Virus record (IMG/VR): IMGVR_UViG_3300045988_124153
Source of the DNA: a virus
Direction: 5' to 3' (one strand)
DNA length: 64,000 bases
Shown: in pieces, positions 5,533 through 57,376 of the stretch
Layout: the number at the start of each line of letters is the position of its first letter
How positions within the stretch are numbered: position 1 is the stretch's first letter
The notes under the pieces: generated by a model
Database searches by the model: none
Seen by the model: only the letters and a program-made list of their open reading frames with translations
What the model was told of the DNA's origin: nothing
Position numbers and translations under genes: made by a program

Positions 5533-5941
5533 ATTAGACAAAGTGGTTAATATCCTAAAAGAAAAAGGATTTGTAGTATATAGAAAGGGCGGGAAGGAGC
5601 CAGGTGTGTTTTACGCTAAAGAAGGTGACAGCCGGATAGGATTCGTTTATCCAAACAACGGATATATATACGATAGGATAAAAATGTGGTCTTTTTCAAG
5701 GGTGTATAAACCACATAAGAAAACAGGGTCTTCGTGTTTAATGTGTGTCAGCGACGAATTTACTATAGAAAATGCGATTAAGAACATAGAGGATAGACTG
5801 TGGGTGAATTATATAAAAGATGGTAACAGAAAACGACCAGAAGAATATAAAAATATAAGAGAATTTGTTGGTAGCTTCACTAAATTCTACAGCTCTGTAG
5901 AATTAGTTGAGGTTAAGTAGTTTTCCATGCGAGTTAGTTGC

Positions 5942-5976
5942 CGGCACTGGTCTGCGAAGATAGGTGCCGTTTTTTT
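5942..5976 (+). terminator. Intrinsic terminator (CGGCAC-loop-GTGCCG followed by T7)
   Basis: 6-bp GC-rich stem directly followed by TTTTTTT after ORF 5510-5920. Confidence 0.6.
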
Positions 5977-7340: not shown

Positions 7341-10080
7341 TCGTATATTAGTCAGATAGTGAACGACGAAAACAATACAAATGTTTGTTAATTATGAGAG
7401 TAGAAGATTTAACGAAGTTTGAAGGAGAATGTCCTAACATAGTCGTACTTGGTACATATATGGATATTAGGGTTCCATTAACGAAAAAATGGAAGAAAAT
7501 TATTAACGAGAGAGGAGATAAGCCAAACACGTATCATAACTGTTTGATTAGTTATATCTCAGAGCAGATCGCGTTGTCCGGATTCAACATGAAAAGCATC
7601 GGGAACCTCTTAATAAAGGGAATCGTTTTTAATCAAAACGATTACTATAAGTATAACGACGTAGGAGGATTCCCGGCAACTATCAACGATTTGGGATATT
7701 GGGATAAAAACAGGGTAGAGCCAAATGAAGATTTTCACACTGTTAGGCTGTTTAATACAGTAAGTGTATATGGATTGATGTTTGGACCCATAAAACAAAA
7801 TAATTTCATTACGCTGGAAAACGATATAATGCAGATTAATGTTGGCAGCATAACTTACATCTAAAGAGATAAATCATGAAGCTATTATATTTAGTAGAGT
7901 CAGGAGAATCGAAGTTCCTTGTCTTCGACGAAATGCCTGATAAAATTAGCACAAAGTACGGAGATGATACCATTATTGGAAGGATAGGAGGTATATTCTA
8001 TGATTTCCTTGCAAAGAGAAATGAGAGAAGAGAAGCTTTCGGAGGTAGAAAGTTCGATATCGTACTTGACAACGGAGAGATAGAGAAGTGTGAAGGGCAA
8101 TGGTGGGATGCGGTGACAGACAGAGCAAGAGAAGAATTGGAAAAAGAGGGAAATACATTTTCCAAAATGATGTTGATCGGTGTTTCTTCAGTAGATAGAT
8201 TATCGGATTGTTATGTGTATTATGGGTTATGGGCATCCGAAAGTAAGATTGAAGAAATGATAGCTGACTACAAAGGTCATATATATGAGTATTACGAATT
8301 TAAGGAAGAGGTTATTAATAAGATAAATGAGACCCGTAGAAAATCATATATTCAATCTTGGAAAGAACAGATAATACGGTCTGGGATGAGGCAGAAAAGA
8401 AAAGACGTATTTGAATCACCGGATGGATTGTATATTGAGATGGTATATGAGAACAAAGCGTTTGTGCCATATAGACCTATAAAAGAAACCCAGGATTTAC
8501 CTATAGATGCAAAGTACATACCGCTTCTTACAAGGATATTTGGAAAGAACATACTTGCGGAGATAGGAGGGGATAAGATATTTATAACTACTGGGAAATA
8601 TGCTGTGAATTTTTGGTGCTGGAAAAAGTAAGCATAATGTAAAAAGAAGATTAAAATAATAGCTTATGACATTTCGAGAATTTATGCAGGAGAACGGCTA
8701 TGACCTGATAACTACCTTTTGGGAAGATTTCAGCATAGCCGACAAGTATGGTGTAGCAGGTGTCAAAGATACCTACAAACGTGCATTCAGTGAATGGGAA
8801 GATGATTATAAGTTTTTCACGGAATTAACGCTCGTGTTGAATCATAAAATCTGGCAGCATTATGAAAGCAATCGTGAACTGGCCGCATTGTATGACCGGT
8901 TGTGGCGGGAAGTTGACGAGTATGCCATGAACAACTTTAAGGGAGAGGAACTTGATTATTATTATAAAATAACAGATTAATATTATGACAGCAGCAGAAA
9001 AATTGCGTATGGAAATAGCGCAAGAAGCACCATTCAGTAAAGACGAATTTATTAGTAAAATCTCTCGTCTAATTAAGGCGTATGGATATGCAAGTTTTAT
9101 TTGCGACAAGCATATTCGAGAAACTAATATATCATCTAATGGTAACACAATTCGTATGGCACATGAACAGGTAGCAATTGATTTTGCTCGTTCTGAGGGT
9201 TTCTCGGTATCATATAAACATAACAGTTATGGTGTTAGATATATATTATTCACTTTGTGTAAAATATAAAGACATGGAAGACGGACTTATTACAACAAAA
9301 GAAGTAGGGAATTATCGTATAAAAATATACTATGATACTGACAGTGCATGTCCTTGTGAAAGTTGGGATATGGCAGCATGTTTCTTATGGGAATGTATCT
9401 ATTTACCTCGACTGCAAGATGTGTGCGATTGGAGAGAAGTGTTTGGTAAATACGGAGATAGTCGGCACTCACTTATAGATGCACTACATAAACTTATTAG
9501 TAAATATGTTAAATGGAAAGACTTGCTGAATTATTTTAAGAAAGGCAAGATTGACGGTTGTCGACTGAGATATGATAACCATGATAAAATGTGGTATTAT
9601 AAAGAAATTTTTAGCATTTCTCCATCAGATCTTTACACGTATGATTATACGTATGAATTTATAGAAGACTTAGGATGTGAAGAATTGATTCAGATTCTTT
9701 CAGACTTAGGCAAGGATATATTTGTCAAAGAATGGTCCACAACAGGATACAGTCAAGGGGATTATGTTAAAGGTATAGCTTTCTGTACAAAGGAGAGGTA
9801 CACAAAAAATGGTTAGTAATAATACTTCCGATTGGAAAACCCAAATTGACAAATTGATTGATGATGAAGTGAAATCCATAGGTATGTGGATGTGGGGAGA
9901 TGTAAAGGGGTACGTGCTTGAAAAGAAAGTGAAATTTGTCAAGAAATACAAAGATAAATCCAGGGAGGATGAAGAGGGAGAAGAATGGGAAGAGGTTGAT
10001 TCCTGTTGGGGTTATTATATGGAAACAGACGAATTGATAGAAGAAATAATGAAAGAACATAATCTGAAAGAATAAGGAGA

Positions 10081-10089
10081 TGGGGGGGG
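10081..10089. repeat. G9 homopolymer between an SD-like GGAG and a 57-aa GC-rich small ORF (10083-10256, MGGGIMRVYYQ...)
   Basis: Nine consecutive G in an AT-rich intergenic context; the tract gives GGG codons after the first ATG, and a second in-frame ATG lies 15 nt downstream. Confidence 0.5.
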
Positions 10090-12655
10090 GATCATGAGGG
10101 TGTATTATCAGAAAGAACACCAAAGAATTACAAATAATACTGATTCAGGTCAACGGCTGATAGTGACGGACGCCACAGGAGACAGGTGGGGTAAAGTGCG
10201 AAGAGCTCCGGTTCAGGGGAGACGCGGGCTGCATCACATGGCGTAAGGTTACAGTAGATGAAATTATTGAACATTTTAAAAGAAGATAATTATGGGATAT
10301 ATATGTACAAGATGTGGTGGAACAAAGGTTGCTTGTGAAGCCATAGTAAATCCGAATACCAGAGAAATAATAGATTATTTTGATGGATCTTTCGCGCATG
10401 CTATTTGCGGGGATTGTGAAAATGAGGTAATAATATCTAACGTTGAAGAAGTCAAACATGAAATTGATTTAAGATTTCATGAATTTGTAGAAAGAACAGG
10501 TAAGGAGCCTGAATACGTAGAATGTCAGATTGTATGGAAGGAGACAGGAGACGATAAAAGAGCGACAATCAAACTATCGCTGAGTATCAACGATGATGAT
10601 AATGATGATGTTTTTTATTATTGTAATGGGATAGAATCATTTAAGCAACTTGCTGAATACGGGATGGGAGAATTTATCGTAACATTTTGTTGGAGTTTCT
10701 TTTAAGAAATACATTCAGTTATCATTTTTTAATAACATATCTTATGAAAGCACAAGAAGAATATGCCCATGAAATTGACGAAATCGTTCGCCGGGATGTA
10801 GAGAGCTACCAGAGTGACTGGTTTATAATCGACAAGGAGATATTTATGCAGCCAGAGAATAAGAACAAGGCATTTATTTTGGGAACAAGAAAGACCGGGT
10901 GCGATATGATCGTACTTGGAGGTACTAATTGCAGCGGATCCAATATGGATTGGCTTTTCGGTTGCCTTGGCAACCGAAAACTTCTATGTATGCCAGCCAG
11001 TATCTTTCTATAAATCACAACAAGAAATCCAGAAAGTAAATCCGCTTTATGCTTTCAAGGTGGCCACTGCTTATTTTAGAGAACAAGGGAAGGTTCCGGT
11101 ATTTGAAGATAGTAACTGTAGATTAATAAAACTATGAGCATAAAAGTAATAAGATACAGGTTGCCATCTTGTTGGGCTTGTCCGTTAATCAATGATGATT
11201 ACACTGGATTAACGGATGAAGAATGTGAGGAAATCCATAAAATACAAGATATGGAAAGATTGAATTTTGAAACATTGTTTCGTATCGTAAGATGGGATTA
11301 CAACCGTTGCTTTAAGGATGAATCACTGGACAAGGATTTGTTCGTAGAAAAATACGGACGGGTAATGGGTGAACATTATTATAACAAGTTTGTCCATGAA
11401 TTTGACGGAAATATCCTGAAGATGGTTGGTTACTTCAGAGGTTCCGAAAAAGATGGGCAAGTCTTCTGCGATATGATAACAGAACGTATTGAAAAATACG
11501 AAAAGAGAATGTCATATGATAAAGGTAAGTTAAACAATTAAAAAGATATTTATATGAACAATTCAATGGTCGCTCACTTGTGGGCTCATGAACAAGAAGA
11601 ATCAGCATCAGGGAGCAATTTCTTCTTTGAAGGTACAAGTATTTATTCTTATGGGCATCACTTTGAAGTCGGGAGAATAGTAAAAAACAAACAAGGGAAG
11701 AAAGCATACCTGATAAATGAAGATTATTATTCTGTTACCACGAGCAAACATCAATGCTATGTTCGTAATGCGATACCAACTTGGGCAATGGTTTTCAGTG
11801 TAGGGGATAATATATCGGATACTGGTAATATGAGGTTTGTTGCCAGCAAACTGGAATCAATTAAGAAGTCTATTGAAAAATACAAAAGAGCTAAAACAGA
11901 ATTATCTTATACAGATATTTGGGGCGCTTTTGGGAATATGATGGATTACATTCAGTTCTTTAACATGGGGACTGCTAAGAGTATCCTTAAAAAGAGTGCT
12001 AATGATTGGCTTGGAACCAATCATGAATTATCCAAGAGCGGAGATAGTATCAAGCGTAAGCACGTACATGAATTAAAACGCATCTTTCAAATTTTATTAG
12101 ATCATCAAGGATTAAAAGTGTTAGGGACCGTAAATGTGATTGTTGATGAAGTTTGCGGGGAAGGTACATGGATTAAGTATTCAGAAAGATCTGAAAGATG
12201 GAGAAAGGGTGAGGAAGAAAGAGAAAGAATAAAATTAGAGAGATTAAGAAAGGAAGAAGAAGCCCGTTACAAGGATTTTGATGAAAAACTGGAAGAGTGG
12301 AAGTCAGGAGAAATCAATTTCTTGAATACACCTTTCTATATTCCTGGTGAAAAACCTAACGCCTGGATTCGTATAAAAGGAAATATTATTGAGACAAGTA
12401 AACAGATAAAGATTGGAATAGCAGAAGCCAGAAAACTGTGGCGGGCCGTGTCGGAAATGCACCGGGGCGCCGAGTTTCGGCACGGTCTGGTGGAGGATGT
12501 CACCGGCCACCAGTGGAGTCTAAATCGGTACGAAAACGATTTGTTAACCGCTGGATGCCACCGGATTGCATATAGCGAGATGGAAAGTATTGCGAAACAA
12601 CTGGGATGGGCGTAAGTAACCCATCCTGTTTTATAACAATTAAAAACGAAAAGAT

Positions 12656-21000: not shown

Positions 21001-23400
21001 TATATGGGTAGAATATACGGAGCCTGAACAAAGAGGTAGATTGTTTAATTTAATAAATAAAAAGAAATGAAAACAGTTTTTGATTTAAGCAGCGATGAGA
21101 TTGTGGCATTGACAGACGAAGAGATAAGTCTGTATATAGACAAAGAGCTTGCTGGTAAGGGTATTCCAATTGAAGCTAAAAATTGGAATATAAAGAACGA
21201 AAAGGAAGTTGTGTACCCGGATTGCGGGGTTCCGATATTTGTCATTAAAGACATAGGTGTAGGATTTAGAAAGATAGAGGACGCTACAGAGGTGGCGAAT
21301 TTACTGGTCAGGTCCAGGGCTTTTAAAGTGAATTCAAAGTATTTAAACCGATCTTATGAGAGGTTAAACGTCATAAACGAGGGCGTCGTGCCGGCAGTAG
21401 AGGGTTGCGTAGGATACACCAATGAAGAATTTGAAAGAGTTAACAAAGAAAACAATGATCCTGAATCAGAAAAAATAGGATCATTTAATAAGACGGTAGA
21501 GGAAGCCAACAACATAAGAAGCCGAGTGTTGAAATACGTGGACAAGATAAAACAGGAGCGTGCGTACAACATCGACCTTTGCATGACTTTCGAGAGATAT
21601 ATTGAGATAGCAGATAAAGATGCGGAGCGGGCTATGGCTTTCTTGAAAGAAGCCTACCCGTTTAATGAAGAAACAGAAGTCTTTATCAGGAAAAGATACA
21701 ATATGTCTATCAGTGTTGACCCGGAAGAAATTAATTTACATTAAATCATTTTGTTTCTTATTAAGCAACAAAAGACATATCTTTGTCCGAAAAGTAAGAA
21801 ACATGAAAGAGGAAGAAGAAAAGATTAAAGAGGCTATGGCTGAAGCCTTGATACATTTAGAAGGTTGCAAATATTTTGTGGTCACGATAGTAAACGAAGA
21901 AGAATGTAGGTTTGATATGAGTCAGCGTATGTCTCCTCGTCAACTGGCTTTGGTTATAAAAGGTGTATTATCAAATAATAATATGATGATGATGGATGTA
22001 CTACAATGGTGCTCAGCCAGGCTTCAAACAGAAATAGAAAAAGGAAAGAAATCAACTAATTAAATATTAATGCAATGAATCGCTGGTTTGAAATTACGGT
22101 AAAAGCCGAGATTGATAATATCGAGAACGGCAAAAAAAAGAAAGTAACTGAAAAGTATTTAGTGGATGCCTTGTCTTACACAGAGGCAGAATCAAGATCG
22201 TTGGAGATCTTCAAGGATTTGTACAATTCTTTCGAGGTTGTAAAAATTAATCCTATTAAAGTGTCGGAAATCTTCTTCAACGGAGAAGCTGAGTACTGGT
22301 ATAAGTGTAAGGTGAATTACATTACACTGGATGAAAAGAAAGGTAAAGAAAAGAAAACTCCATGCTATATGTATATCCAGGCCGGCAATCCTAAGGATGC
22401 CGAAGCTGTGTTGACTAAAGGTATGCAGGGTACGTTAGGAGACTGGAATTGCGAGTCTATTGTGGAAACGAAAATCATTGAAGTGTTTAAATACGATCTT
22501 CAGAAGGGAGCTGAAAAATTAGGCGAGAAGAAGAGTGAAGAGTAAGGCTGATGTAGTTTCCAACATAGCGCTTGTTGTGGCGATAATATCATTGCTTTCA
22601 GCAGGCGCTTTCCTTCTGATAGTGATTAAGACAGACGAGGTATCTAAATTGTTAATGAACGTACCTTATCTACTGGCTTCAGCGGGATTGTTCTTTTCAA
22701 TAATATCATTATTATTCGAATGGAAAGCAAGGAAAAGAAGCTATACGTCTGCGAACGATGTGGACGAAAAGTGATGATAAGAAGTCATGGCTTATGCCAG
22801 GCTTGCAGGAGCAAAGAGTTGACTCCGAAGAAAAAAAACAGAATTACATCCATTAAAAACAGCAGCAAGAAGAAAAAGTTAGAGAACCCGGATTTATCCG
22901 GGTTTTTTCGTCTTATGTTGGAGGAGTTGAGTACTATTCGAATGTCTATGACTGGTAAAGCTATTCATTTTCCTACAGTATGTAACGTCTGTCACATACT
23001 TCCGAAAAGGTTATATAAGTCGGTTGCCACTTGCAGGGATAATATAGTTTTCCTTCATGAATCAGAGCATACGGTATTCGACATGTATCTTGACCGGATG
23101 GAATTTGATAAACTTGAAACAGAATTTCCTTTTGTGTGGAAGTATGCGGTAAAGAAGGTGCTGGATATGGAAAGCAGGGGAATGATTAAAGAAAGAGGTA
23201 GATTAATTATTGAAATAATTGACAGATATGAGAAAACTTTATAAAATAAGAATAGAAGCTGACGATGAAACTATCTTTTATGCTCACATACAGAGAGAAA
23301 GTTATGGTAAGGATATAGCTATCGCAGTGAAAGATAGAGATAAAGATGAAGTGGAAACAGTGTTACATTGTATTAAAGAAGAATTGATTAGAGGAAGATC

Positions 23401-39707: not shown

Positions 39708-40898
39708 ATGAGATTAGTTGAAAGGCATATAGTTAAAGACAACCGGTTTGAGGATATTTGCTTCAAATCCGGCTTGTTATATAATTATGTTCTTTACAAC
39801 ATTCGTCAAGGAATCTTTTCAGGTAACTATTTAAAGGAATTTGATTTATCAAACAAACTTTGCAAAGAAAACCAATTTGATTTCAGGAATTTACCTAATC
39901 ATGTTTCACAGCAGGTGATTAAACAGGTATTTAAAAACATAAAATCCTGGATGAGATTAAAGAAAGATTTTGAAAAGAATCCTTCGAAATACGGTAATCA
40001 TCGTCCTCATCTTCCTTCGTATAAGAAGGGCAAGAAACAAAACATGGTTGTTTTCACCAACTGCAATTGTAGGGTAAAGGGTGATAATTGTATTTATTTT
40101 GTTAAAGATATAATCAAACCTATCAAAACAAATGTAAAGAAAGACGAACTAAAACAAGTTAGAATAATCCCTCAAGCTACATGTTATGTAGTAGAGGTAG
40201 TTTATGAAAGAAAGGAAACTGATCTTGGTTTAAACAAAGACAATTTTCTTTCGATTGATTTAGGATTGAATAATTTATGTTCATGTATTAGTAATGTAGA
40301 AACTAATTCTTTCATTATAAACGGACGGGTTATGAAATCAGTAAATCAGTGGTACAATAAGAAGAAAGCTAAGTTGATGTCTTTTGTTGGTAATAAGGGA
40401 ACTTCAAATAGAATAAGAAAAATTACTTTGTTTAGAAATTGTTGGATAGAAGACAAATTGCATAAAATCAGTAGATACATTGTAGACTTTTGTAAATCTA
40501 ACAATATAGGAACAATCATCATTGGATTAAACAAAGAATGGAAAAACGAGATAAATATCGGTAAAAGGAATAACCAACATTTTGTTTCTATTCCTCATTC
40601 TAAATTGATTGATAAGATTGTTTACAAAGCAAATCTTTTAGGGATAGAGGTAATTACTCATGAGGAATCTTACACATCAAAGATTGACCATCTTGCTTTT
40701 GAACCTCTAAAGAAACAGGAATCCTACTTAGGAAAAAGAAAGAAACGTGGATTGTTTCAAAGTTCAATTGGAAAACTGATCAATGCAGATATTAATGGAT
40801 CAATTGGAATAGCAAGAAAAGTAGTCGGTGATTCTTTCATTGGAAAGATAATCGATAGTGGATTTGTGTTTAATCCGGTTAGAATAAATATTTTGTGA
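39708..40898 (+). CDS. tnpB: TnpB-like (OrfB_IS605) protein with RuvC-I (SIDLGLNN) and RuvC-III (INADINGSIGIARK) but the zinc finger replaced (S.TSKID... no CxxC): a degenerate or derived TnpB
   Basis: Motifs read directly; the Cys of the Zn ribbon are absent. Confidence 0.6.
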   Translation: MRLVERHIVKDNRFEDICFKSGLLYNYVLYNIRQGIFSGNYLKEFDLSNKLCKENQFDFRNLPNHVSQQVIKQVFKNIKSWMRLKKDFEKNPSKYGNHRPHLPSYKKGKKQNMVVFTNCNCRVKGDNCIYFVKDIIKPIKTNVKKDELKQVRIIPQATCYVVEVVYERKETDLGLNKDNFLSIDLGLNNLCSCISNVETNSFIINGRVMKSVNQWYNKKKAKLMSFVGNKGTSNRIRKITLFRNCWIEDKLHKISRYIVDFCKSNNIGTIIIGLNKEWKNEINIGKRNNQHFVSIPHSKLIDKIVYKANLLGIEVITHEESYTSKIDHLAFEPLKKQESYLGKRKKRGLFQSSIGKLINADINGSIGIARKVVGDSFIGKIIDSGFVFNPVRINIL

Positions 40899-42083: not shown

Positions 42084-43235
42084 CTAAAGCAAATGGGATT
42101 CTTGGATACAAACGCAAGAAACCCCGACATTACTATCGTTGGAATTACTCTTACTCTCCAATTCGGAAATGCCCTTCCGAAGTATATTACGGGATGCAAG
42201 AACATCACGGTCGTTGACCGCGCCGCACGACGGGCATACCCACGTGCGGTCGCGTAACGACAGTCCTTTATTAATGCAGCCACATTCACAAGTTTTGGAA
42301 GAAGGATACCATTTGTCAATCTTATGTACTATCACTCCATACTTTGAAGCAATATATGTAAGTTTGTCAATAAAAGAAGAATGACTGAGATCAGAAACTT
42401 TCTTTCCCCACAAACGTTTCATTCCTTCAATGTTTAGATCTTCAATAAAAATATAATCATATTGTTTACACAAATCATGAGCTAATTTCCATTGAAAGTC
42501 TGATCGAAGATTGTTTATTTTACGATACGCTTGTTGTAGTTCAAACAGTCTCCTTCTTTTATTATTGGATCCTTTCTTTGCATTAGAAAACCGTTTGTTT
42601 AGTTTTCTAATCTTGTTTTGATATTGTTTGAGGAATAATGGAGAATCGATTTTGCTACCATCACTTTTAGTTAGATAAGTTTTCAGACCAAAATCCAATC
42701 CGATAGATGCACCATCATGTGTCTTTCTATAAGAGTTTACAGGATTATGGTCTGTAACTATAATCAAACTAAAACGGGAACAGGTTTCTCTAACTATTCT
42801 AATTTGTTTAACATTACCTTCATAAGGTCTACTGTATGAAAACTTAAAATGTTTCTTTCCTTTGTTAATTGTTAGACAATTTCCATTCAGGGTAAACCCT
42901 CCTTGTTTGAATACAAAAGAATTGAATTTCTCCGGTGATTTAAACTTAGGAGGTCGTTTAGCCAACTTCTTGAAGAAGCGATTGTATGCTGAATCTAACC
43001 TTTGAATAATTTCTTGTGTTGTTTGGGAATGAAGAAGATTTCTCTTAATTCTTTTAGAGAAATGTTTTTGCATCTTGCCAACTGAGATATATTTCCCAAA
43101 CAGTTTGTAATACCTACGTTGTAGAGCTAAAGCATGATTCCATACAAAACAGCATTCGCGAAGTATCTTGACAAGATACTTCGTTTTCTTTGAATAATAT
43201 ATGTTATATTTGTATGAAATCATTTTTAACCACAT
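42084..43235 (-). CDS. tnpB: TnpB RNA-guided endonuclease (IS200/IS605 family, IS1341-like): RuvC-I IGLDFGLKT, RuvC-II IFIEDLNIEG, Zn ribbon CECGC...CPSCG, RuvC-III NDRDVLASRNI
   Basis: All catalytic and Zn motifs present. Confidence 0.8.
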   Translation of the reverse strand: MWLKMISYKYNIYYSKKTKYLVKILRECCFVWNHALALQRRYYKLFGKYISVGKMQKHFSKRIKRNLLHSQTTQEIIQRLDSAYNRFFKKLAKRPPKFKSPEKFNSFVFKQGGFTLNGNCLTINKGKKHFKFSYSRPYEGNVKQIRIVRETCSRFSLIIVTDHNPVNSYRKTHDGASIGLDFGLKTYLTKSDGSKIDSPLFLKQYQNKIRKLNKRFSNAKKGSNNKRRRLFELQQAYRKINNLRSDFQWKLAHDLCKQYDYIFIEDLNIEGMKRLWGKKVSDLSHSSFIDKLTYIASKYGVIVHKIDKWYPSSKTCECGCINKGLSLRDRTWVCPSCGAVNDRDVLASRNILRKGISELESKSNSNDSNVGVSCVCIQESHLL

Positions 43236-45519: not shown

Positions 45520-48500
45520 CTACTTGTAGCTAACATCATCGTCCCCTTCCGAATCAGGAGTAGCGCCGATGAAGAACATCATTGACTTGTTGTTCGTCTG
45601 CTGCCACCAATTATAGGCGCGCGCTACGTCTTCCGGCGTCTTGATATTATACCATTGTTTGATAAACGTCTGTTTGGCGAGTTGCCTAAATAACTTAAAC
45701 TCTCCTTTGTATGTGCCGGATGTTACTTTATCAAGTGAGTAATTCCTAAGATCAGTAAGATCCTTCAACTTCCGCCCCATGACAAACGGGTCGTTAATGA
45801 TATCTACAACGTTAAGCTCCATAATAAACGGCATCTGTGAAGCTATTTCGTTTATGGTTCTGAATCCGACATAGGATCCAAATTGAGTAAGCCAACTTTC
45901 TTCGTTTTCATCATCATCACGCCATCCGGCAAGAAGCATGGATACGGCTTGCATGATAAGGAACGTGCCGGCATAGACACTGAGACGTTTTATATTGGTT
46001 TTCTCTACCTCATTCATATTGTCTTTATTTTCGTTCCAGGCATCTATGATGTTTTTCATACCAGACTCGGAAGCTAAGCTAAATGTTTTGGCTATCATAT
46101 TCTTTAACGTAATTGACAGTCCTTCCTCTTCTTGCATTGTCTGGAAATTGAAGCCACGTCTTTTCCACAGACGTTGAGCCGCCAGCACCAACCATCCTCG
46201 GTGGGCGGTCATGAACCTGGCTATCCAGTTGCGCGATGCGGCAGTTCGGTTTTCTTCATTCAAAGATCCGTTACATATCTGCGACAAGCTACGAACTTGA
46301 TTTCTGGTTATAGCCATCTGGGTTTCAACTTCCTCAACAGTAACACCCGATCCTGGCTTTACAACCACCTTCCCATCCACGACGTCTACCATACTCCATA
46401 AAGTACGATCTTTTAATGCATTCCATTCTCTTTTTATGGTACTCTGTTCTTTATTACGTTCTTTTTCCATCTTGAAATCTTGGAACGTGTAGAACCGGCC
46501 TTTGTAATAACGAACATTGTCCATAGTAGCAATCATAACCTGCGGATCAAGAGGGTAGTTCAGGATTTCCATAAAAGCATACATAGGCGAACGCATTAAG
46601 GTCCTGGCCGCTCTATTGTATCCGGCACCATACATACGATTTCGGATATTGAATATCCCCATTCTCTCACCTATGACATATAATTTGCTTTTCCTATCTA
46701 TGTCTCCGGTTTCTGCTATACAAGATGGCGCAAGACGTGAAAACTCAGCCGATGCGTATTTAAGGGAGTCTTTGCTTATATACTGTCCTACGGCAGATTC
46801 CATGATGAGGTTGATATGACCTGTCAGGGCGCCGGTAGCTGCCACAAACGGAGACAGTGCCAAGTTCATAACCGACATAAATCTTTCAACAGCCATCATA
46901 ATTCTTGTAAGGTCTACCGTATATCCTCCGATGTTCACCGTAAGTTTTTTGGTGTTCATCCTAATGCCATAATAATGATCGTTGAAGAAGTCCCTGAACA
47001 TCTGATATGCTTGGGTTGCTTCAGCCTTCTTACCACCTTCAAATTGTTTGTTCAGCAACATCTGCTCCAGTCCTTGGGCAAGCTCTATAGACTTCTGCTT
47101 TTCATTGTATAACGATGACTGCATCATAAGCATCGAATAAGAGTAACCAAAATCGTGAGATACGTCATCTTGGTTCTCTAATTCATATATGTAGTATTTA
47201 GGTATGGACCGAACCCTATCTTCCGGATCATATACCTCACCCTGACGTGTTTTACCATACAGGGAGTCATCTACGCGGTCAAGACATAAGTCGGATACGA
47301 AGTTCCTGACCGTACTTTTAAGGTTAATACCTAACCCTTCTATACGTTCTATATCTTGTTTGGATATCTGTGGAATAGCATACAGATTAGGGCTCTGCTC
47401 TTTATATAGATCAAGGGATTGTCTTTTTATTTCCTTGAGTTTTTGAATCATATTCCACTGCTCTACGTTTTTAGTAGCGACCTCATTACCATCAGCATCA
47501 TATTTGATACCAAAGTCATTGAGATACGATTCATCACGATACAGGCTCTTCTTGGGCATACGATGACCATACCCGTGGTCTTTTACATAATCAGGATTAC
47601 GACCGCTATTTTCGGCTTCAGATTCAGCCACCCATGCCCTTGCAGGGTCGAAAGACAGGTACGATATGTCCATGCCATAATCTTGGGTGGATGTACCGTT
47701 TTGTACGTCCTTAACCATCTGCGCCACATCTATCTCACCTCGACCGATTTTGTCGATCATAGCCGCATATCCAGTAGGCGCCATGCGTTTATAGTACGAA
47801 AAGACCTGGCTCCTGGCAAATTCATTAACAATAGCATTAGCCTCTTCTATACCTGATTCTCTTGTGTTATTTAAAAACAAGCTGGCCATTTTAGCATTGA
47901 CGGCATTCCTAAAATCTCTACCGTCTAATTCTTTGCTTATTCCAAGCTTTTCTGACAAGTAGTTGGTTTCAGATACGGTAAACAGATACCGGTTATCAAC
48001 AGCTTTGAATAACTTATCCCTTAAGGCTTGAATCCTTTTTGCTTTCTTCGCCGTAGTATGACGTTGTACGAACTTCCATTCCACTTCCTTGGAGTCAGCA
48101 AGAGCATTTAAATAAGACTGATTTACTTCGTTTTCAGCCTTACTGCTTTTAGTAAGGTACTTATCAATATCTTCAAGACCCACCATCTTAGCATAATCTA
48201 TTAAGATAGCGTAATCGGCTTCAATAGCTTCAGATGCGGCCCTAAAAGCATCTCTTTCAGATGAGGTAAATGTCGCTTCGTTAATTTCTCCGATATCAGC
48301 CACATCGCGATTGTTTCCGATTATTTCCTTGATAATGGCCTTATTTTTTTCTATATCTTTTACAATCGAGTCCACGTCAGTCGCATCTCTATCACTTGTC
48401 GTAGAACTAATGATGTCTTGTGCCATTTTAAGATACGAAGCCTTGTTATTTGATTCGGTACGCGCCGATTGTTCTGATTCTACGTCATTCCAAAACCGAT

Positions 48501-51500
48501 CGTTGAATGACAGGTGCCCCCCCAACATAAGTGTCTTCAGCGCAGCTTCTCCTCCTGACTCGTTCTGAATCGTTCTCAATTTTTGCAAAAACGATTCTGA
48601 TACGACATTAGTGACATTATTTGATTCCTTTCTCCAAACTTCATTTATAGCTTGTATTTCTTTGGCCATCTTAAGTTGGTCGCCGGTTTTTTCCACTCTC
48701 CTGGTTCCTACATATATGTATTCTGAAGCTGCTTCTTTACGTTGTTTACGAAGCAGTCCTTCTTCTTCGTAATTGCTGCTTTTAAAATAGGAGGCCTCAT
48801 CAAAATTACCACCGCTATCAATAAAAGGCTGCCTCAATATCCGTTTTTGCCTGGATAGAGCATTAAGATATTCTTTGGTTGTTTGAGAAACTGGATGCCC
48901 TAATTCTTCTTCAGCCTTTTTGTATATGGATTCCATTCTTGTGGCATAACTTTCGCTAAATTCCAGTTCCGAATTTTCAGCATCCCACTTTTCCATCTGT
49001 TCCGTATAGATCTTTTCCTGCTCGATGGTAAAAATATCGGTATTAACTCTATCAGACGATGGTTTGAATTTAGCGTTTTCAGTAACCGTATTTCCATCCT
49101 TGTCAACTACTTCTCTTTTAAATACGTAATTACGGTTATTGTCAACCACATCATTGATTTCTTCTTCTGATATCTCTATGTTCATGGCAGTCGCAAACGC
49201 TCGCATCTGCGCCAGCTTCTTATTACGATCGTATTTAGCCATATCAAGAGCACTACGAAGGTAATTAGAAGTTTTGCCGTCTACTTTCTGAAGCAGTTTT
49301 TCAAATTCAGATTTGTTAAAACCATGCTTTTTAGCATATGCCAGGAAGTCGGATATGGCGGGCTGGGCATTCACCATCGCATTGTAATTGTCTTTGGCAA
49401 TCATAGCTCCAAGAGCGTTATTGAACGGACTGGAAGAATGCTCTAATATACCAAACCACCTACTTATCCAAGAAACATCATGTTGAACTTTGTCAAAAAA
49501 TTCTTTTACTCTCTTTACCTTATTTGCCGGCACATGAAGTTCGTTCATTAACTTATCAAGCAACGTACTTTCATCAAGGTCTTGTACTGATTTAATATCA
49601 GACTGAATACCATTGATGTCGGCAATGACGGTATTGATCCTATTTGTATAATCCTGCTTTTCACGTTCATCAAATTCGGTACTTCTGTTACGGATATATC
49701 CTCGAAGATCGTTCATGATCGGAAGAACCTGATTGTTGATAATATCTACGTTCTTTCGATCATTGGTATTGAAGTGAAGCTTACCGTCTTTGGTATCACC
49801 ATGAAGGATGGTGTTCACCACATTGCTTAAGTATCTGACCTGAGCTTCGGCTGTGGAGATCATGCTGTTCATGGCAGCCGCCATCTCATTCTTGTCTATC
49901 TCGGTCTCTACTTTATTTATCTTATCTTCTATGGTCTTAAGCTGAGCAAGGGTCATAGACGTAGTTACAGCCCTATCAGAGCTTATCTGACGTAAGTCTC
50001 TTAATGTTTTTCTTAGCGATCTGATCTTAGACTCAAGAAACTTGTTCTTGTTCATAGAAGAAAGGGAGTATAATGTAAAGTCATTATCCTTTAACAGAGA
50101 AGTGTCAAATCCTTTATCTATGTCAGTAATGGCAAGATCACGAATGTTTTTAATAACGTTATTCAAATCTTGTCTTTGGGTTGATAAAGCTGATTTAAGC
50201 CAGCTTACTATTCCAGAGAAAAGCCGCCGGACGCGCCCCAGGAAGGAGGTGGGCTCTACCGGCGCCTGTGCTGTGCCGGTCTGCATCTCCCTGGCGAGGA
50301 TCTTTCCAAGAATTTCTCTCCTAACAGCATTATCAAGCTCAGCTCCTTCATATACTTTACCGTATGTATTATAATACTGACCTGCATATTGGTTCCACTC
50401 TTCCGTACCTTCCACATCTTGCAGAACAGCCTCAACAGCATTCTGATCTCTGTATGCCTCTACAAGGAAGTGGGCTGTTTCTTCTACTAAATCAGATAAA
50501 GTAGCATCTTCACCAACTGCTATTACGTTATTGGCAATATCCGCCAATGCCTTAGCAGAAGGTTCATGCCCGTATTTGGTTTGGTACTTCTCTATATAGT
50601 CGGTCATACCTATGACGCTAACGCCAAGAGTTTTCAGTATCTCGACAATAGAATTTCGTTGGTCACGTTCCTGCCTGCTATAATCCGATACGATCTTAGC
50701 TTTAGTATCAGCATAAAGATCGTTGTCTTCTAATATGAATGAAACTACAAGCGCATCAAAATGATCGTACTTGGCGTCCAATTCATTGTATCTTCCTGAC
50801 TTAAGATCGTTCTTTATCTGCTCCCTGCTAACCCTTTCCGTTCCTCCGGTGGCGAGCCTCATAGTCACCTTACTGTTATCCAACGAGCTTATGGTTATCA
50901 TACCTTGGTCGTTCATGGAAACATCGGAACCAAAATGATTACGGAGCTCGGTGTAGGATAAGGCTGAATTGAAAAGTCTAATTTGTCCTGTATGACCTTC
51001 TCCTGTAAGATAATAGCTTCTTGTTTCAGGATTGAATATCTTAGATCCTGACAAAAGACCTTTCTTTATAAGGTAGTTAATTATACCACCTTTTGTTGAT
51101 AAAGAAGTAGAAGCAGACGCGGTCATGACCGGTATAAAAGACTTGGGATTATTAAGAACATACTTTCCAGCTTTGTAAGTAATGTCTGCCACGCCATCCA
51201 CGGTAGATTCTTGAACGGTGCCTGATAAGAATCCTATTCTAATATCATTCCCGCCAGAGCGAAGAGCTTCTCCGTAATCTTCAAATAATTGACTACGATC
51301 GTTCATGAAAAACAAACGAGGCTCTCCGGTCTGATACGTTACACCCACAGGATTAGAATCTGTCTCTGGTAGCTCTTCTGGGCTAAATATCTTAAGACCG
51401 TCTTTTATAACCATATAATTAACACCCTTATCCTGTACCATAGATACGGGAGTAAAGTCCGAAGATATAGCATCTTGTAGATACTGCCCGGCGTCTATTC

Positions 51501-51942
51501 CCGGTCCTTCCGGTACGGAAATACTTGACGGGACCATAGCATCCACCAACATAATATTATTACCCAGATTTTGGCTGTAGAATCCAAAGCCCGATTCTTG
51601 GATTTCATAAGGTGCATCTGATTTTGACACAAGAACAGGGTTACTCATCTTAGAAGCCTTATCCAGCACCCTTTCTCTATAGGCCTCCGGAATAAGATCG
51701 ATGTCGGATTTTACCTTATTATAAGCCGGTTTGTTGATAGGCACTCTCTTTCTCCAGTCGCCAAAAGCCTTTAAGAACTTATTAGAAAATACGGTTTTAA
51801 AAACAGTAGTAGCCCGTTCCCTATTCTCCATAAGAGGAATAGATGCTATTTTATCAAACAACATAGACCTGTCCCCTGATCTGGTAGAGACAGAAACAAC
51901 TTTCTTTTTATTATCTCTTTTAATAATACACGTTGATGTCAT
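45520..51942 (-). CDS. Giant 2140-aa protein, virion-associated or structural candidate; no catalytic motif recognised
   Basis: Single uninterrupted ORF in the late, minus-strand module upstream of tail-fibre-like genes; no D.DGD-type RNA-polymerase motif found by eye. Confidence 0.6.
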   Translation of the reverse strand: MTSTCIIKRDNKKKVVSVSTRSGDRSMLFDKIASIPLMENRERATTVFKTVFSNKFLKAFGDWRKRVPINKPAYNKVKSDIDLIPEAYRERVLDKASKMSNPVLVSKSDAPYEIQESGFGFYSQNLGNNIMLVDAMVPSSISVPEGPGIDAGQYLQDAISSDFTPVSMVQDKGVNYMVIKDGLKIFSPEELPETDSNPVGVTYQTGEPRLFFMNDRSQLFEDYGEALRSGGNDIRIGFLSGTVQESTVDGVADITYKAGKYVLNNPKSFIPVMTASASTSLSTKGGIINYLIKKGLLSGSKIFNPETRSYYLTGEGHTGQIRLFNSALSYTELRNHFGSDVSMNDQGMITISSLDNSKVTMRLATGGTERVSREQIKNDLKSGRYNELDAKYDHFDALVVSFILEDNDLYADTKAKIVSDYSRQERDQRNSIVEILKTLGVSVIGMTDYIEKYQTKYGHEPSAKALADIANNVIAVGEDATLSDLVEETAHFLVEAYRDQNAVEAVLQDVEGTEEWNQYAGQYYNTYGKVYEGAELDNAVRREILGKILAREMQTGTAQAPVEPTSFLGRVRRLFSGIVSWLKSALSTQRQDLNNVIKNIRDLAITDIDKGFDTSLLKDNDFTLYSLSSMNKNKFLESKIRSLRKTLRDLRQISSDRAVTTSMTLAQLKTIEDKINKVETEIDKNEMAAAMNSMISTAEAQVRYLSNVVNTILHGDTKDGKLHFNTNDRKNVDIINNQVLPIMNDLRGYIRNRSTEFDEREKQDYTNRINTVIADINGIQSDIKSVQDLDESTLLDKLMNELHVPANKVKRVKEFFDKVQHDVSWISRWFGILEHSSSPFNNALGAMIAKDNYNAMVNAQPAISDFLAYAKKHGFNKSEFEKLLQKVDGKTSNYLRSALDMAKYDRNKKLAQMRAFATAMNIEISEEEINDVVDNNRNYVFKREVVDKDGNTVTENAKFKPSSDRVNTDIFTIEQEKIYTEQMEKWDAENSELEFSESYATRMESIYKKAEEELGHPVSQTTKEYLNALSRQKRILRQPFIDSGGNFDEASYFKSSNYEEEGLLRKQRKEAASEYIYVGTRRVEKTGDQLKMAKEIQAINEVWRKESNNVTNVVSESFLQKLRTIQNESGGEAALKTLMLGGHLSFNDRFWNDVESEQSARTESNNKASYLKMAQDIISSTTSDRDATDVDSIVKDIEKNKAIIKEIIGNNRDVADIGEINEATFTSSERDAFRAASEAIEADYAILIDYAKMVGLEDIDKYLTKSSKAENEVNQSYLNALADSKEVEWKFVQRHTTAKKAKRIQALRDKLFKAVDNRYLFTVSETNYLSEKLGISKELDGRDFRNAVNAKMASLFLNNTRESGIEEANAIVNEFARSQVFSYYKRMAPTGYAAMIDKIGRGEIDVAQMVKDVQNGTSTQDYGMDISYLSFDPARAWVAESEAENSGRNPDYVKDHGYGHRMPKKSLYRDESYLNDFGIKYDADGNEVATKNVEQWNMIQKLKEIKRQSLDLYKEQSPNLYAIPQISKQDIERIEGLGINLKSTVRNFVSDLCLDRVDDSLYGKTRQGEVYDPEDRVRSIPKYYIYELENQDDVSHDFGYSYSMLMMQSSLYNEKQKSIELAQGLEQMLLNKQFEGGKKAEATQAYQMFRDFFNDHYYGIRMNTKKLTVNIGGYTVDLTRIMMAVERFMSVMNLALSPFVAATGALTGHINLIMESAVGQYISKDSLKYASAEFSRLAPSCIAETGDIDRKSKLYVIGERMGIFNIRNRMYGAGYNRAARTLMRSPMYAFMEILNYPLDPQVMIATMDNVRYYKGRFYTFQDFKMEKERNKEQSTIKREWNALKDRTLWSMVDVVDGKVVVKPGSGVTVEEVETQMAITRNQVRSLSQICNGSLNEENRTAASRNWIARFMTAHRGWLVLAAQRLWKRRGFNFQTMQEEEGLSITLKNMIAKTFSLASESGMKNIIDAWNENKDNMNEVEKTNIKRLSVYAGTFLIMQAVSMLLAGWRDDDENEESWLTQFGSYVGFRTINEIASQMPFIMELNVVDIINDPFVMGRKLKDLTDLRNYSLDKVTSGTYKGEFKLFRQLAKQTFIKQWYNIKTPEDVARAYNWWQQTNNKSMMFFIGATPDSEGDDDVSYK

Positions 51943-52454: not shown

Positions 52455-53470
52455 TTATTATTTGTTTAAATAGACCAGTTCCGTCTATTATAATATGACC
52501 GTTTCTCATGCGGTCATTATTTGGGTTATAGAGAAAGTTAAGACCATCCACTTTCTCTTGTTTTTCAAAAGAGTTGATATCCTTTCCTCTACTTGCCCTA
52601 TCAAAAGCCTTCTTAAACAATTTGCCTCTGAAAGTCATAATAATCTTTCTGGTAGCGCTATTCCCGGCTTTTACCATTGTTTTCCTTGTCTGGTCCTCCG
52701 AGACAAAACTGCTTCGGAAAACATACGATGCTGCTGCTTGTATATCCTGCTTGGTAATCATATGCAAAACATTCCTTTCAGAATACTGGTCTTTATTCCG
52801 TATATCAATTTCATGTTATCTCTATCATATACGCCAAAAAGGATTCACTGGGGTCCTTTGGATTTACGCTCAGTTGAATTATGCAATTGTAAAGATAGAC
52901 CTTAAGTTCATAATTATCAGAGTATCTATCCTGTATGTTTTCAAATGTCTTAATTAATTCTTCAACAAGTACTCTGCTAAATGAAAAAGGTTCTCTACAA
53001 TCACCTTTAAATATGATATGATTTAAATCATTGGTATTATCAAATTCGTACTCTACCCGACTGTCGTCCATCATATCATAAGTGATTGACTTTTTGATTT
53101 TAAATCCCATATTATTTTGTTTTTTAGTTAATATAGATCTTCTGAATACAATTGTTCTCTAATGGCACTCCTATCTACTACCATTTCCTGATTATTGCTC
53201 TTAACAAGTTCAGATGCTTCCTCTCTTGTTAAAAACTGATTCTTGCTTGTCAAAAATCCTTGAACACTACAGTTTTTATGGGCTATACCGTATGCCGCAA
53301 GTTGAGATAGTATAGAGGGGTGTCTCAATCCACAAAATACGGTTCCAGATGGTATATTGGTGGGCTGATGAGGACGCTTCTTGCCGTCCTGCACCCAGAT
53401 GGCCGCGCATATTACTATTTCTTTATTATACATGATACGTTTTTCTATTAAATTTATTAAATATATTCAT

Positions 53471-54704
53471 TTACTTTAATATAATCGGATGCCTCTTCCC
53501 TCTAATGAGTTTAAACTTTTTGCGTGAAACATCTTTTGAATTTTCTCCGTTGAAATCCCTGATATTGAAACTCCCTGATTTTCTCCTTCCATAAACAAAT
53601 AATATTTTATTGTTATACAACACTTTATCAAACAATCTAAAACCGAAAACCTCAAAAGGAGCTTGATTGTTTTTCTTCTTTCCTCCTTTTAAAATTTTCA
53701 TTTTATGTATTTGCCTGTTATGTCTACGAATTAAACGTTTTAAATATTGACGTTCGATTCGTTTCGCATTAATGTTCATAGAAATGACAAACGCGTCGGA
53801 TGTATGGGATTTTTTCAATACCGTATTTAATCCGATTATGTTTCGTAATGTAACCAAACGTCATAGAAACTCTGTCGTATCTGGATCTCAGTTCTTCATA
53901 CAACTTCCATTTCATGATCCCCATTACGGCCGCGTCGCGGAGCGACGATCCCCGTTTGATCTTCAAATCTATATTACCTTTATGGTATTCTTTGTGACAA
54001 GTTTCACATAAGGTAATAAGATTAGAAGGGGAATCACCTCCCGTTTTTCGGGATTCAAGATGATGGACATTAAGGATCTTATCTTTTGACTTCCCTTTAC
54101 AATACTGACATTTATGCCCATCCCTTGCTAAAACATACTCCCTTGTGTTCCAAAATCCAAGTTGATCACCTTCCTGGTATTCTTTACCTAATATTTCAGG
54201 ATTCTTAATCTTTTGAGTATCAAATTGAGCTACTTCAATAACAATACGAGATATTGGTAATATAGAACATACATTGTCAATAACACGAATATGGGCGTCT
54301 ATTTTGTACTTCACCGAAGGTGCTACCCATCCAGGACGCTTACTTTTTATTCTGTTATCGAAACGAGGTTTTCTATACCTCAATCTATTCCGTCTTGTTC
54401 TTCGTAGCTCCCTTCTGGTAGACAAAAGATCTACGATATCATTTCTAAGGATAACTTCACTACTGTAAAGTTCTTTGCTTTTCGTCGTAGCTGATAAACC
54501 AACATGTTTAGTACCAGCATCAACGCCTAACACAATTTCCTGTTTGTAATCAGATGTTACGTACGTTAATCGGATGGTAAACGGACATAGGTTCACAACG
54601 ACTGCCTTTTTATCTTTAAGCAGTCTCCTAACCTTACCATGCCTCGTTGTTGGCATCATAGGTTTACCATCTATGTCTTGTACGTACACCATATCTACAA
54701 ACAT
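53471..54704 (-). CDS. iscB: IscB-like RNA-guided nuclease: PLMP (DGKPMMPT), RuvC-I (LGVDAGTKHVGLS), Arg-rich bridge helix (RRELRRTRRNRLRYR), RuvC-II (IVIEVAQFD), HNH (CQYC...HH...GGD...LC..CH), RuvC-III (KKSHTSDAFVI) and a TI-like C-terminus; a +1 frame change near 53838-53843 separates the 311-aa and 128-aa track ORFs
   Basis: All IscB hallmark motifs in order across two frames; the junction maps between ...FGYITK and IIGLNTVLKKSH. Confidence 0.75.
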
Positions 54705-55060
54705 TTTTAATGTTTATTCAACATAAGTCAGGAATATTTCATCCTGTTAGTACCCATCGCCAATGTTATAAGAGGTTTTATATAATGGCAACACTGTTTC
54801 GTCAAATACACTACTCCTGTTTAATCACCATCCTTAGAGCTACGGACTTGGGCAAACATCCGTAGGTAACTATCTATTCTCAAATAACGTAGCCTTCGTT
54901 TCAAGGCTTAGGCTAATATCCGGACCATTTATGGTACATTAAAACCTTATAATGAAATTATATTGTTTTAATGTTATTTCGGATATCAATATATTTACGT
55001 CAAACATACAGATATACTTTTTACCCCAATCGATTCTTTTTATCTTACGACCTAATTTAA
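54705..55060 (-). ncRNA. Putative omega-RNA region upstream of iscB: non-coding, with several stable hairpins (CTACGGA...TCCGTAG 54840-54865; AGCCTT...AAGGCT 54891-54908)
   Basis: About 370 nt with no ORF immediately 5' of iscB on the same strand, as expected for IscB omega-RNA; structure inferred by eye only. Confidence 0.35.
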
Positions 55061-57376
55061 GCCGTTGTAAAGCCTATTCGAATGTCATGCCACGACGAGG
55101 CAGTTTGAGATACTTTTTAAGTCTGTCGGCAGCTTCATTTGGTGTATGGACATCGTATTCGAAAGCGGTTTCTCTTTCAGGAACATCAAACAAATCCCAG
55201 TATTTGCTTTCATAGTGATTAGATACCTGACCGGTAGGTAGGATCGCCATCACAATAAACCAATCATCAGAACCGAAGCATTTTTCTCCGTCGCTGTGTC
55301 TCCTTGATTTGCAAACTTCAACCTGTCCGCTTCTGGCTAATAGATTAAAGAAGGCAGCGTTATACAACATGTGATACCTATACAATTCATTGAAAGTGTG
55401 GTATCCGTCAGAGACTTCTCCCACGTCTACAGGCTTCTTGTTTTGAATACTACCCAAAATATTCTCTATATAGAGCTGTATTTTATACATACCCATTTCG
55501 GTGTGGCCGTATTTGTTCAAGATATTATTGACATCGTATTGTATATTAAAATCTTTTTCAAATTCTACTTCAGGATGATTAGGATAGAAGTAGTCCACTG
55601 ATGCTTCTAACACTGACTTTACGTGTTCTATTATCCTCGCAACATCATCATGTTTAAAAAAATGCTTAAATCTTTCAACGAATTTAATATCTTCGTTGAT
55701 TGCTGATTCGAACTCTTCTTTTGTCATTACTCTAACCACATCTTTAAAATCTTTTAATTCCATGATTTGTTTTAAATTAATTGTTACTATACTTTCTTTA
55801 TCCTACAATACAAACCCCACAAAAACTCAGCGGAGAAACTATCCCATACATTATTCTTCTGCCAAAGTTCTACTTTGTTAACAAACCAAGACCATATGGG
55901 ACCCTCATATGAAGAATCAGATGATGATCCCAATCCGATTTTCTCCATTTCATTCGCCACATCAGAATAAGGATCTAAATCGACTCCCCTAATCATGTTA
56001 ATAATATCATCCTTGTCTAACGTAAATTGAAACCGCTCCTTGTTAGTAGGCGGATCTTGATTCAATTTACCAGTCGCAAGCCATTCTCCATCATGATACA
56101 ATTCGGCAAGTTTCTTTACCTTATTTTTAAGAAAAGAATACTCTTGTATAACTTCCATAAAGTCAGTTTCGTTAGCTTTACCCTCTATGAAGATAACGGT
56201 TTTGCTTCCAGGTCTATGATCGTCTAAGCTTACCGGGATTCCTAATATCGTCCATCCTTTAAACTCAGCTATCTTAAAACGCATAACGTCAAACACCTTA
56301 TAGAAATCATCACAATCTACAGATTCTATTACCTTAATATCCTCTTCTGTGAATTTACCTCGTATCGGAATAGCGTAATGACCAGGACGGCCATCGGTTC
56401 CGAAATATGCGATTCTAACCATATTATATATAATATTTTAGTTGTCCTGAAATCCTATATTTACTTATATCATCGCACAGGTTACACCCTCCCGTACATC
56501 CACAAGCCGAACAATACGAATCTCTTTCTGCCTTCGATTTAGATTGGAAATCCCTTACGGCTTTAATCCAGGTAGGAGAAACTATCTTACCAGAGAAAGA
56601 AGGTACGTTTAAAAGTAGTGTTTTCATGATTTCGCTGAAACATTCATATAACACGGTACATCTACCACATCTCTTCTACGAAGTCCCTTCTCAAAATAAG
56701 AAACCATATAGGTATTTTTACCTTCGTGATCAGGTCTTGGATCAAAGCATTCAAAAACGAATCTTGTTCTACCTTCAAGATAACCAAACATGAAAACAAA
56801 TTCGCCACCGTATCTTTTGCCGGCTAATTCTTCTACAGTCATAATCTATCCCCTCCCAATCCTGAATTGATGCTAACGTACTTGACACGAACTTCATTTC
56901 CACGTCCAAGCTGACCCCAGCCGGGCGATGGCGTTCCCTTGGCCGGAGCAGGGACAGCCCTAAGCCGAGGCCAGTCCTGCTTTTGCCTCATGGCTTCAGC
57001 CTCTTTGTAATACAGGTTACACAGTTCTTGATCTTCGTAACCAACGTAATCTTCCTTATTTTCCATATAGAATACTTTTTCAACAAAAGTACGACATTCA
57101 TGAATTAATTAGATTTAAAATAAAACAATATGAATTAAAATAAAAACCCGATACGTTAAAATCGCATCGGGCCTGGTATTAAAAAAAATAGGTTCAGATC
57201 TTGGGTAAAGATTCGAGCCAATTTTTAACATCTTTATATTTAGGGTCTTTGTCTATTCTATCTTTCAGTTCATGCAATGCTGAGTCCATAACCGTATTCG
57301 GTACGCCAATCAACTCTCCTATTAAATACAATGGGGTTTTATTCGATTTAGATTCGTGTGCTATATTCATATCCAA

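Follow-up and report, generated by a model that had tools for sequence, protein, structure and literature searches.

The 64,000-nt stretch of viral DNA analysed here (IMG/VR virus record IMGVR_UViG_3300045988_124153; hereafter the window) carries on its minus strand, at 53434-54986, a unit of ~1,553 bp in which an iscB gene is preceded by the sequence of its omega-RNA (ωRNA). The two ends of the unit read ATATCCGAAATAAC ... AAAAACGTATC, the one on the side of the target-adjacent motif (TAM) being uncertain by ~2 nt. We consider it highly probable that the unit is one copy of a non-autonomous IscB-ωRNA element, that is, an OMEGA element of the IS200/IS605 insertion sequence (IS) type, and that it belongs to a phage-borne lineage. 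Read 5' to 3' on the minus strand, a 16-nt guide derived from the flanking DNA (5'-UGACGUAAAUAUAUUG-3', 55002-54987) would be followed by a HEARO-type scaffold which forms the right end of the element (54986-54746), by iscB (54692-53471), by a short left end and by an ATG. A preliminary description, made from the letters of this DNA alone, had proposed IscB plus an ωRNA at this place, and that reading is borne out by an RNA match above threshold and by alignments of the repaired protein, both of which are set out below.

The ωRNA scaffold

A search of the whole window against Rfam returned a single match, to HEARO (RF02033), which is the RNA now known as the IscB ωRNA. With 95.1 bits (gathering score 83; E 3.6e-18), the match occupies 54746-54986 of the minus strand, covers the full model (positions 1-211) and ends 42 nt from the first in-frame ATG of iscB (54704) and 54 nt from the likely start codon at 54692. 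A covariance-model search 5' of the gene, as the preliminary description had advised, thus finds HEARO above the curated threshold and immediately upstream. HEARO was also found upstream of every related iscB that we checked. When 18 of these ωRNAs were aligned and analysed with RNAalifold, 21 of the 30 predicted pairs showed compensatory changes on both sides, and the covariation falls in the same helices as in the Rfam family; the window differs from the Rfam model, however, in having a 5' domain that is AT-rich and longer. The first stem of the scaffold covaries between phage subfamilies (ATATCCG/CGGATAT versus ATAATCG/CGATTAT versus AACCC/GGGTT), so that the scaffold begins at 54986 and the guide lies on its 5' side. 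The 303-nt ωRNA region as a whole folds better than each of 100 shuffled sequences (z = -3.0). In DNA as AT-rich as this, a scan for promoters and terminators gave no useful information.

Between the HEARO match and the start of iscB lies a spacer (54693-54745) with a small hairpin at 54729-54746. This spacer is probably a 3' extension of the ωRNA, as the RF02033 model is without the downstream structural elements of the ωRNA (Meers et al., PMC10055086). The preliminary description had assigned the ωRNA to a stretch of ~370 nt free of open reading frames (ORFs) 5' of the gene. Indeed, that stretch holds no minus-strand ORF of at least 60 amino acids (aa) and the scaffold does lie inside it, but part of it is what remains of a neighbouring gene: 54705-55073 comprises the scaffold at 54746-54986, the 16-nt predicted guide at 54987-55002 and a residue of 87 nt from the DUF2829 coding sequence. 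The closest relative of the window, L004 (loci in related sequences are numbered in this way), departs from the Rfam model as an internal-deletion variant, in which the first two ωRNA hairpins have been deleted (~4760-4800, compared with ~5710-5790 in L002), apparently between two ATATCCG repeats, and iscB is intact.

The iscB gene and its product

Two minus-strand ORFs in different frames cover the gene, one of 311 aa at 53769-54704 and one of 128 aa at 53471-53857; the latter confirms that the last third of the gene is in a different frame, as had been noticed at the outset. The 311-aa ORF matches Pfam RRXRR (PF14239, 5.4e-61, residues 6-179) and Pfam HNH (PF01844, 4.1e-10, residues 199-242), the HNH domain being placed between RuvC-II and RuvC-III, and the 128-aa ORF on its own had no Pfam match. 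Deletion of one A joins the two into a 410-aa product (...FGYITKHNRIKYGIEK/SHTSDAFVIS..., where the slash marks the junction). This repaired product is identical to P0002, an intact 406-aa protein, at 401 of 406 positions (99%) without a gap and with an identical C-terminus. It scores 356.6 bits against the NCBIfam equivalog guided_IscB (NF040563, cutoff 175), in a match which crosses the junction, and it aligns with the chains of solved IscB structures (among them 7xht, 7utn and 11hr; E 1e-42 to 5e-44) through RuvC-III, where KSHTSDAF in the window stands against KDHYLDAY in the solved proteins. The fused protein, whose alignment to IscB across RuvC-III the preliminary description had treated as decisive, therefore aligns there by both structures and equivalog.

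The IscB hallmarks that had been listed in order along the minus strand are thus real by Pfam, NCBIfam and structural alignment. The 5' part of the gene (53811-54692, frame A) encodes PLMP, RuvC-I, the Arg-rich bridge helix, RuvC-II and HNH as far as ...YGIEK, and the 3' part (53471-53809, +1 frame, with the stop codon TAA at 53471-53473) encodes RuvC-III (SHTSDAF) and the C-terminal domain. Two of the motifs, GVDAG and IEVAQF, align with OgeuIscB, and all catalytic motifs are present. A start at the second Met (54692) agrees with the 406-aa relatives, and the upstream ATG at 54704 is also in frame. Comparison of the window iscB with nine relatives gave ratios of nonsynonymous to synonymous substitution rates (dN/dS) of 0.06-0.21, and so show purifying selection acting on the lineage. 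Public databases already list members of this protein lineage under the name 'RRXRR protein [Bacteriophage sp.]'. One homologue, P0001 in L003 (GCA_029782595.1 JARCCX010003868.1, 6001-7563), reaches 520 aa through a 342-nt (114-aa) internal tandem duplication that corresponds to window positions 54392-54046, and which is either real or an assembly artefact.

A frame break private to this copy

In the window, the RuvC-III motif is out of frame with the rest of the protein and is joined to it only after removal of one A. The break lies in a run of six As (A6, 53810-53815): the window reads GAAAAAATCCC where L002 and L003 read GAAAAATCCC, with five (A5), and A5 was present in all 31 of the 31 close relatives that could be scored, every one of them in frame. 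The preliminary description had seen the A6 run at its correct position but had placed the junction at about 53838-53843; comparison with the relatives and the gap-free alignment to P0002 rule that position out and put the break inside the run. Its proposed fusion (...FGYITK + IIGLNTVLKK...) was accordingly wrong by ~9 codons, since the junction is the A6 run. As written, the gene should encode a protein without RuvC-III and the C-terminal domain, and this product should be inactive. The family assignment stands for the gene, yet this copy has no intact ORF, as SHTSDAF is reached only in the +1 frame after A6.

A 27-mer containing A6 was absent from IMG/VR and from the contigs of the JGI metagenomes. 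Since A6 was seen in no relative and in neither database, the break is private to this sequence, being either a very recent mutation or a homopolymer error rather than a programmed shift. We lean towards a true mutation or population variant, as the long ORFs of the window are otherwise clean. Somewhat less probable, though still a serious contender, is that sequencing or assembly put one A too many into the homopolymer and that the real phage has an intact, active iscB. An error of this kind would account well for a break which is a 1-nt length change within an A run, in a gene that is otherwise nearly identical to intact copies (2 codons differ from L004 and identity to P0002 is 99%), that has kept all its catalytic motifs and whose A6 form occurs in no other sequence. 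The rest of the window, however, does not look error-prone, a 2,140-aa ORF (45520-51942) and ~90 other ORFs being read through, and a real, very young mutation predicts identical data. Moreover, six bases make a short run for homopolymer errors to arise systematically in an assembly of short reads.

Two further explanations of the break fare much worse. We find it improbable that the unit is an old, decaying IS remnant which is non-functional in every respect. The gene is indeed frameshifted, the neighbouring DUF2829 gene is degraded, and relatives that have wholly or partly lost iscB exist (L083, L079); against this, the lesion is single, with no further disabling change seen in the ωRNA or the catalytic residues, and the ωRNA of the window scores 95 bits, like those beside intact genes (94 bits in L028). 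The repaired gene and the intact L004 copy differ by 2 codons at a synonymous distance (dS) of only 0.004, which leaves no time for decay. Weaker still is a programmed frame change, by +1 ribosomal frameshifting or transcriptional slippage on A6, to yield a regulated full-length IscB: on A AAA AAT, re-pairing of tRNA-Lys in the +1 frame is conceivable and some IS families do make use of A-run slippage, but A6 is short for efficient slippage by RNA polymerase, no stimulatory element is evident, more distant relatives too have uninterrupted genes of 406-408 aa, and the A5 run and single open frame in 31 of 31 close relatives lead us to reject the idea on comparative grounds, as no relative needs such a shift. 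Thus, among the fates that the preliminary description had considered, a programmed shift is disfavoured, and decay holds true only if it means one lesion of very recent date.

Insertion contexts and the ATG rule

The lineage to which the unit belongs lives in ~150-kb human-gut phages related to csAssE-Sib (OR575929), a 151-kb human-gut phage with annotated ring and muzzle proteins and Bacteroidetes-associated carbohydrate-binding proteins, with which the window shares 92% identity over 86% of an 18-kb stretch. csAssE-Sib itself has neither the unit nor any IscB; in the place corresponding to 53434-54986 it has 358 bp of other sequence, consisting of the end of a WDGH-DUF2829 gene and a 91-aa gene. 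A unit with the same two ends stands in different flanks in L002, L003, L005-L025 and L028-L038, and 45 distinct guide-side flanks were counted among related phage contigs. Several of these are clean insertions of the form X/unit/ATG with matching empty sites X/ATG and no target duplication (L047, L048, L049 and L075, compared with L019 and csAssE-Sib), and further such cases were found with L045, L046 and with L076, L080. Some phage contigs carry two or three copies of the unit. A total of 335 matches in IMG/VR shows that the lineage is phage-borne, and matches in bacterial genomes do not exceed 60% identity, except for one of 88% on a 20-kb 'Vibrio olivae' contig. This last locus (L084; NZ_JBHMEP010000019.1, 'Vibrio olivae' CECT 8064), with an IscB 88% identical, a HEARO and gut-phage-like flanks, is probably phage-derived or contaminant sequence in the assembly of a marine Vibrio.

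In element-free relatives, ATG follows 17 of the 28 distinct guide-side sites, compared with a background of 1.8% (P ~3e-23), and the positions after it are mostly A/G and then A/T (ATG-R-W). At its other end the unit adjoins, in nearly every context, an ATG that opens an ORF of at least 40 aa; in the window this ATG (53431-53433) serves the next gene (ORF 53128-53433) as start codon and, judged from the X/ATG form of the element-free sites, would be the TAM as well. Together these patterns fit a TAM of ATG. Two other explanations of the junctions were rejected: TTGAT as a target motif (flank ...TTGAT/ATCC, ISDra2-like), in that many junctions conserve only the downstream ATG of the empty site, and AT microhomology as the cause of the junctions, in that nearly all empty sites have G as their third base.

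What stands at the guide position is just the flank that happens to adjoin the scaffold, and it differs in every insertion context. For the window, we predict the guide to be TGACGTAAATATATTG (55002-54987), directly 5' of the first scaffold stem, taking the length of 16 nt that is known for the family. This sequence has one exact match (16/16) in csAssE-Sib, in the DUF2829 gene, where ATGGT comes next. The copy of these 16 nt in the window runs into ATATCC, the start of the scaffold, and the carrier would be spared in this way if cutting needs the G of ATG. The preliminary description had suggested looking for a guide and a TAM at the 5' end of the ωRNA, and here the search has yielded a predicted guide, a putative ATG TAM and a natural target in csAssE-Sib.

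The WDGH-DUF2829 gene abutting the guide side is disrupted in the window, where a TAG stands at 55074-55076 in place of the AAG or CAG of relatives and a 12-bp deletion is seen relative to csAssE-Sib (~55014). By alignment with csAssE-Sib WOZ57315, its DUF2829 domain is left as 29 untranslated codons (54987-55076, minus strand), bounded by the TAG and the element. Recoding of this TAG is not supported, given that the long late genes stay open when translated with the standard code and that relatives have AAG or CAG.

Element ends, transposase and lost DNA

The unit resembles IS200/IS605 elements in its precise insertion at a short motif, without target-site duplication or terminal inverted repeats. 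Its right end folds strongly (z = -4.66). At the opposite end, the terminal segment next to the TAM (53434-53470, minus strand; the left end of a transposon) is conserved across contexts and contains a 9-nt tandem direct repeat, ATTTAATAA followed by ATTTAATAG, at 53445-53462, past the iscB stop and short of the element end. In the L027 subfamily the two copies of the repeat have changed together (ATTTAACGA and ATTTAACGC), and this joint change suggests a putative binding site rather than a hairpin.

Several observations nonetheless weigh against regarding the unit as a mobile element of this type. The preliminary description had noted that no TnpA is adjacent, and a Pfam sweep and tblastn searches agree: among 87 ORFs of the window the sweep (25 of the 28 families listed) found no Y1 TnpA, and tblastn with a hand-typed IS200 TnpA query found nothing in the window or in the ±5 kb flanks of ~80 loci. 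There was likewise no TnpA in the csAssE-Sib genome and a motif search by regular expression was also negative, host genomes lying outside these searches. The left-end segment has no significant hairpin (z = +0.56), which would be expected of IS200/IS605 ends. With the TnpA and the left-end hairpin missing, strict membership of IS200/IS605 is only tentative; as the query was typed by hand and host genomes lay outside the searches, a source of TnpA in trans is conceivable. The ATG rule, too, has its exceptions, in that 11 of the 28 guide-side sites are without a following ATG. Several of these (L002, L009, L011, L069, L070 and L074) look like short secondary deletions of the flank, and the deletions there are of 3-25 nt and not bounded by ATG.

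Lastly, the window and most loci of its class (class 1) are not simple insertions, for the DNA between two ATG sites is gone. In class-1 loci the downstream junction is constant (/ATGTATAATAAAG), and the guide-side junction lies at one of a nested series of upstream ATG sites. The missing DNA amounts to 28 nt (L028-38 versus L040-43), to 358 bp (window versus csAssE-Sib), to a further 277 bp (L003) and to ~6.3 kb (L002). Such losses mean that events beyond insertion and homing must be invoked, for which recombination between copies at different ATG sites and one-ended intramolecular strand transfer are candidate causes.

A possible homing and retargeting cycle

For the cleavage activity, the homing, the length of the guide and the origin of the transposase we draw on the anatomy of the unit and on published IscB biology, which together would give the following cycle. 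IscB loaded with its ωRNA would cut DNA in which a match to the flank-derived guide is followed by ATG. Such a target would be offered by a co-infecting relative whose allele has no element, or by the site that excision has vacated, and recombinational repair would copy the element into the cut allele, that is, homing as for bacterial IS605 elements. New insertions precisely 5' of ATG would be made by a TnpA-type single-strand transposase acting in trans; they would require one to be so supplied, and none was found here. We put forward, tentatively and as a possibility that we do not rate as the likelier outcome, that phage IscB elements act as RNA-guided devices for homing and competition between co-infecting crAss-type gut phages in the absence of a cis transposase, and that they possibly retarget themselves by jumps between upstream ATG sites. 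In such retargeting the downstream junction would stay fixed, and each jump on the guide side may delete the intervening accessory genes (28 nt to 6.3 kb) and install a new guide.

The unit could alternatively be a domesticated, immobile phage nuclease with a fixed guide, for example a weapon against the host or against competitors. A nuclease of this kind would be in keeping with the lack of a transposase nearby, with strong purifying selection and with the same downstream junction, beside the same phage gene, at most class-1 loci. Identical ends in many unrelated flanks, clean insertions with empty sites among them, are however at odds with immobility, as are the contigs with two or three copies, and the guide-position sequence simply follows the flank instead of being fixed. 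We therefore hold domestication to be improbable.

Relation to known systems

OgeuIscB (PDB 7XHT, 7UTN, 8CSZ) shares with the window lineage the domain order of PLMP/RRXRR, RuvC-I, bridge helix, RuvC-II, HNH and RuvC-III, and a HEARO-type ωRNA which directly precedes the gene on the same strand and whose scaffold has the guide on its 5' side. It is larger, at ~496 aa compared with 406 aa in the window lineage, whose C-terminal ~70 residues are unaligned to the solved chains, whereas the window element is phage-borne and, in this copy, frameshifted. The predicted TAM also sets the two apart, being ATG-R-W here and different in OgeuIscB.

A second parallel is the iscB of ISGst5 from Geobacillus stearothermophilus, in which the right end of the transposon bounds the ωRNA, the guide is derived from the flank, and IscB as well as TnpA recognises TTCAT as its TAM (Meers et al. 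2023, PMC10055086). On the ωRNA strand TTCAT becomes, by reverse complementation, ATGAA 3' of the target, which agrees with the ATG(A/G)(A/T) predicted here. ISGst5 is likewise a non-autonomous element, and iscB stands next to tnpA in only ~1.5% of cases (PMC10055086). The window lineage differs from it in having no cognate TnpA in the phage sequence examined and no detected left-end hairpin; its units are, moreover, placed in phage genomes directly before start codons, and in many copies the stretch from one ATG site to another is missing.

The free-standing homing endonucleases of T-even phages (Seg, Mob), whose 'intronless homing' is reviewed in PMC13565253, would provide the likely functional analogue, as they cut the element-free allele of a co-infecting relative and are copied in with flanking markers. 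Recognition by the window unit would differ in resting on an RNA guide and a 3-nt motif rather than on protein-DNA contacts. Literature searches on phage-borne IscB homing and on csAssE-Sib brought up no specific earlier account.

Further OMEGA-type elements in these phages

Phages related to csAssE-Sib carry several OMEGA-type elements. In the window, the Pfam sweep identified two TnpB genes (42084-43235, minus strand, and 39708-40898, plus strand), both with OrfB_IS605 and Cas12f1-like TNB matches; they lie ~10-14 kb from the IscB unit, and csAssE-Sib also has two annotated TnpB genes. Position 22075 (plus strand), the start of ORF 22075-22545, is an empty site for a second IscB subfamily (...TTAATGCA/ATGAATCGCTGG), and in many related contigs (L051-L078) an IscB unit is inserted exactly there. 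Four of the related loci, L054, L063, L065 and L068, read GGTAA/unit/ATGAATAACGG compared with the empty site GGTAACAACGG (csAssE-Sib, L105, 48466), and in these a gene truncated at its 5' end seems to gain a new ATG from the end of the element.

L034 has two direct copies of the unit 4.2 kb apart (4730-6264 and 8936-10484). Several phage contigs harbour two IscB units of different subfamilies (L034; L004/L058; L025/L074; L019/L076; L077/L080), and L019, L025 and L080 have an additional HEARO copy of a third subfamily (ATAACCCC...). The only contig to share the guide-side junction of the window is L083 (IMGVR_UViG_3300045988_124424, 3613-3849), a solo ωRNA fragment in which ~214 nt of the ωRNA are kept and iscB and two downstream genes have been lost (window 54772-52757 missing).

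Implications

Within the IscB/ωRNA family this copy, taken alone, is an ordinary one, freshly broken or mis-assembled by one base, and its value comes mainly from the phage setting and from the ATG-to-ATG retargeting pattern. For annotation, the locus is better called a frameshifted iscB with a non-coding RNA than two hypothetical ORFs. The lineage is abundant, selected and evidently mobile in large human-gut phages, and natural empty sites and exact guide targets are available in sequenced relatives. This setting therefore suits a test of OMEGA-driven homing between viruses, which is so far a largely theoretical extension of the bacterial 'restorative homing' model. The 406-aa IscB proteins, with a simple, putative ATG-type TAM, are also candidates for engineering. 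If retargeting by jumps between ATG sites is true, it would directly link OMEGA activity to gene loss and allele exclusion in phage genomes, with start codons as the preferred landing sites.

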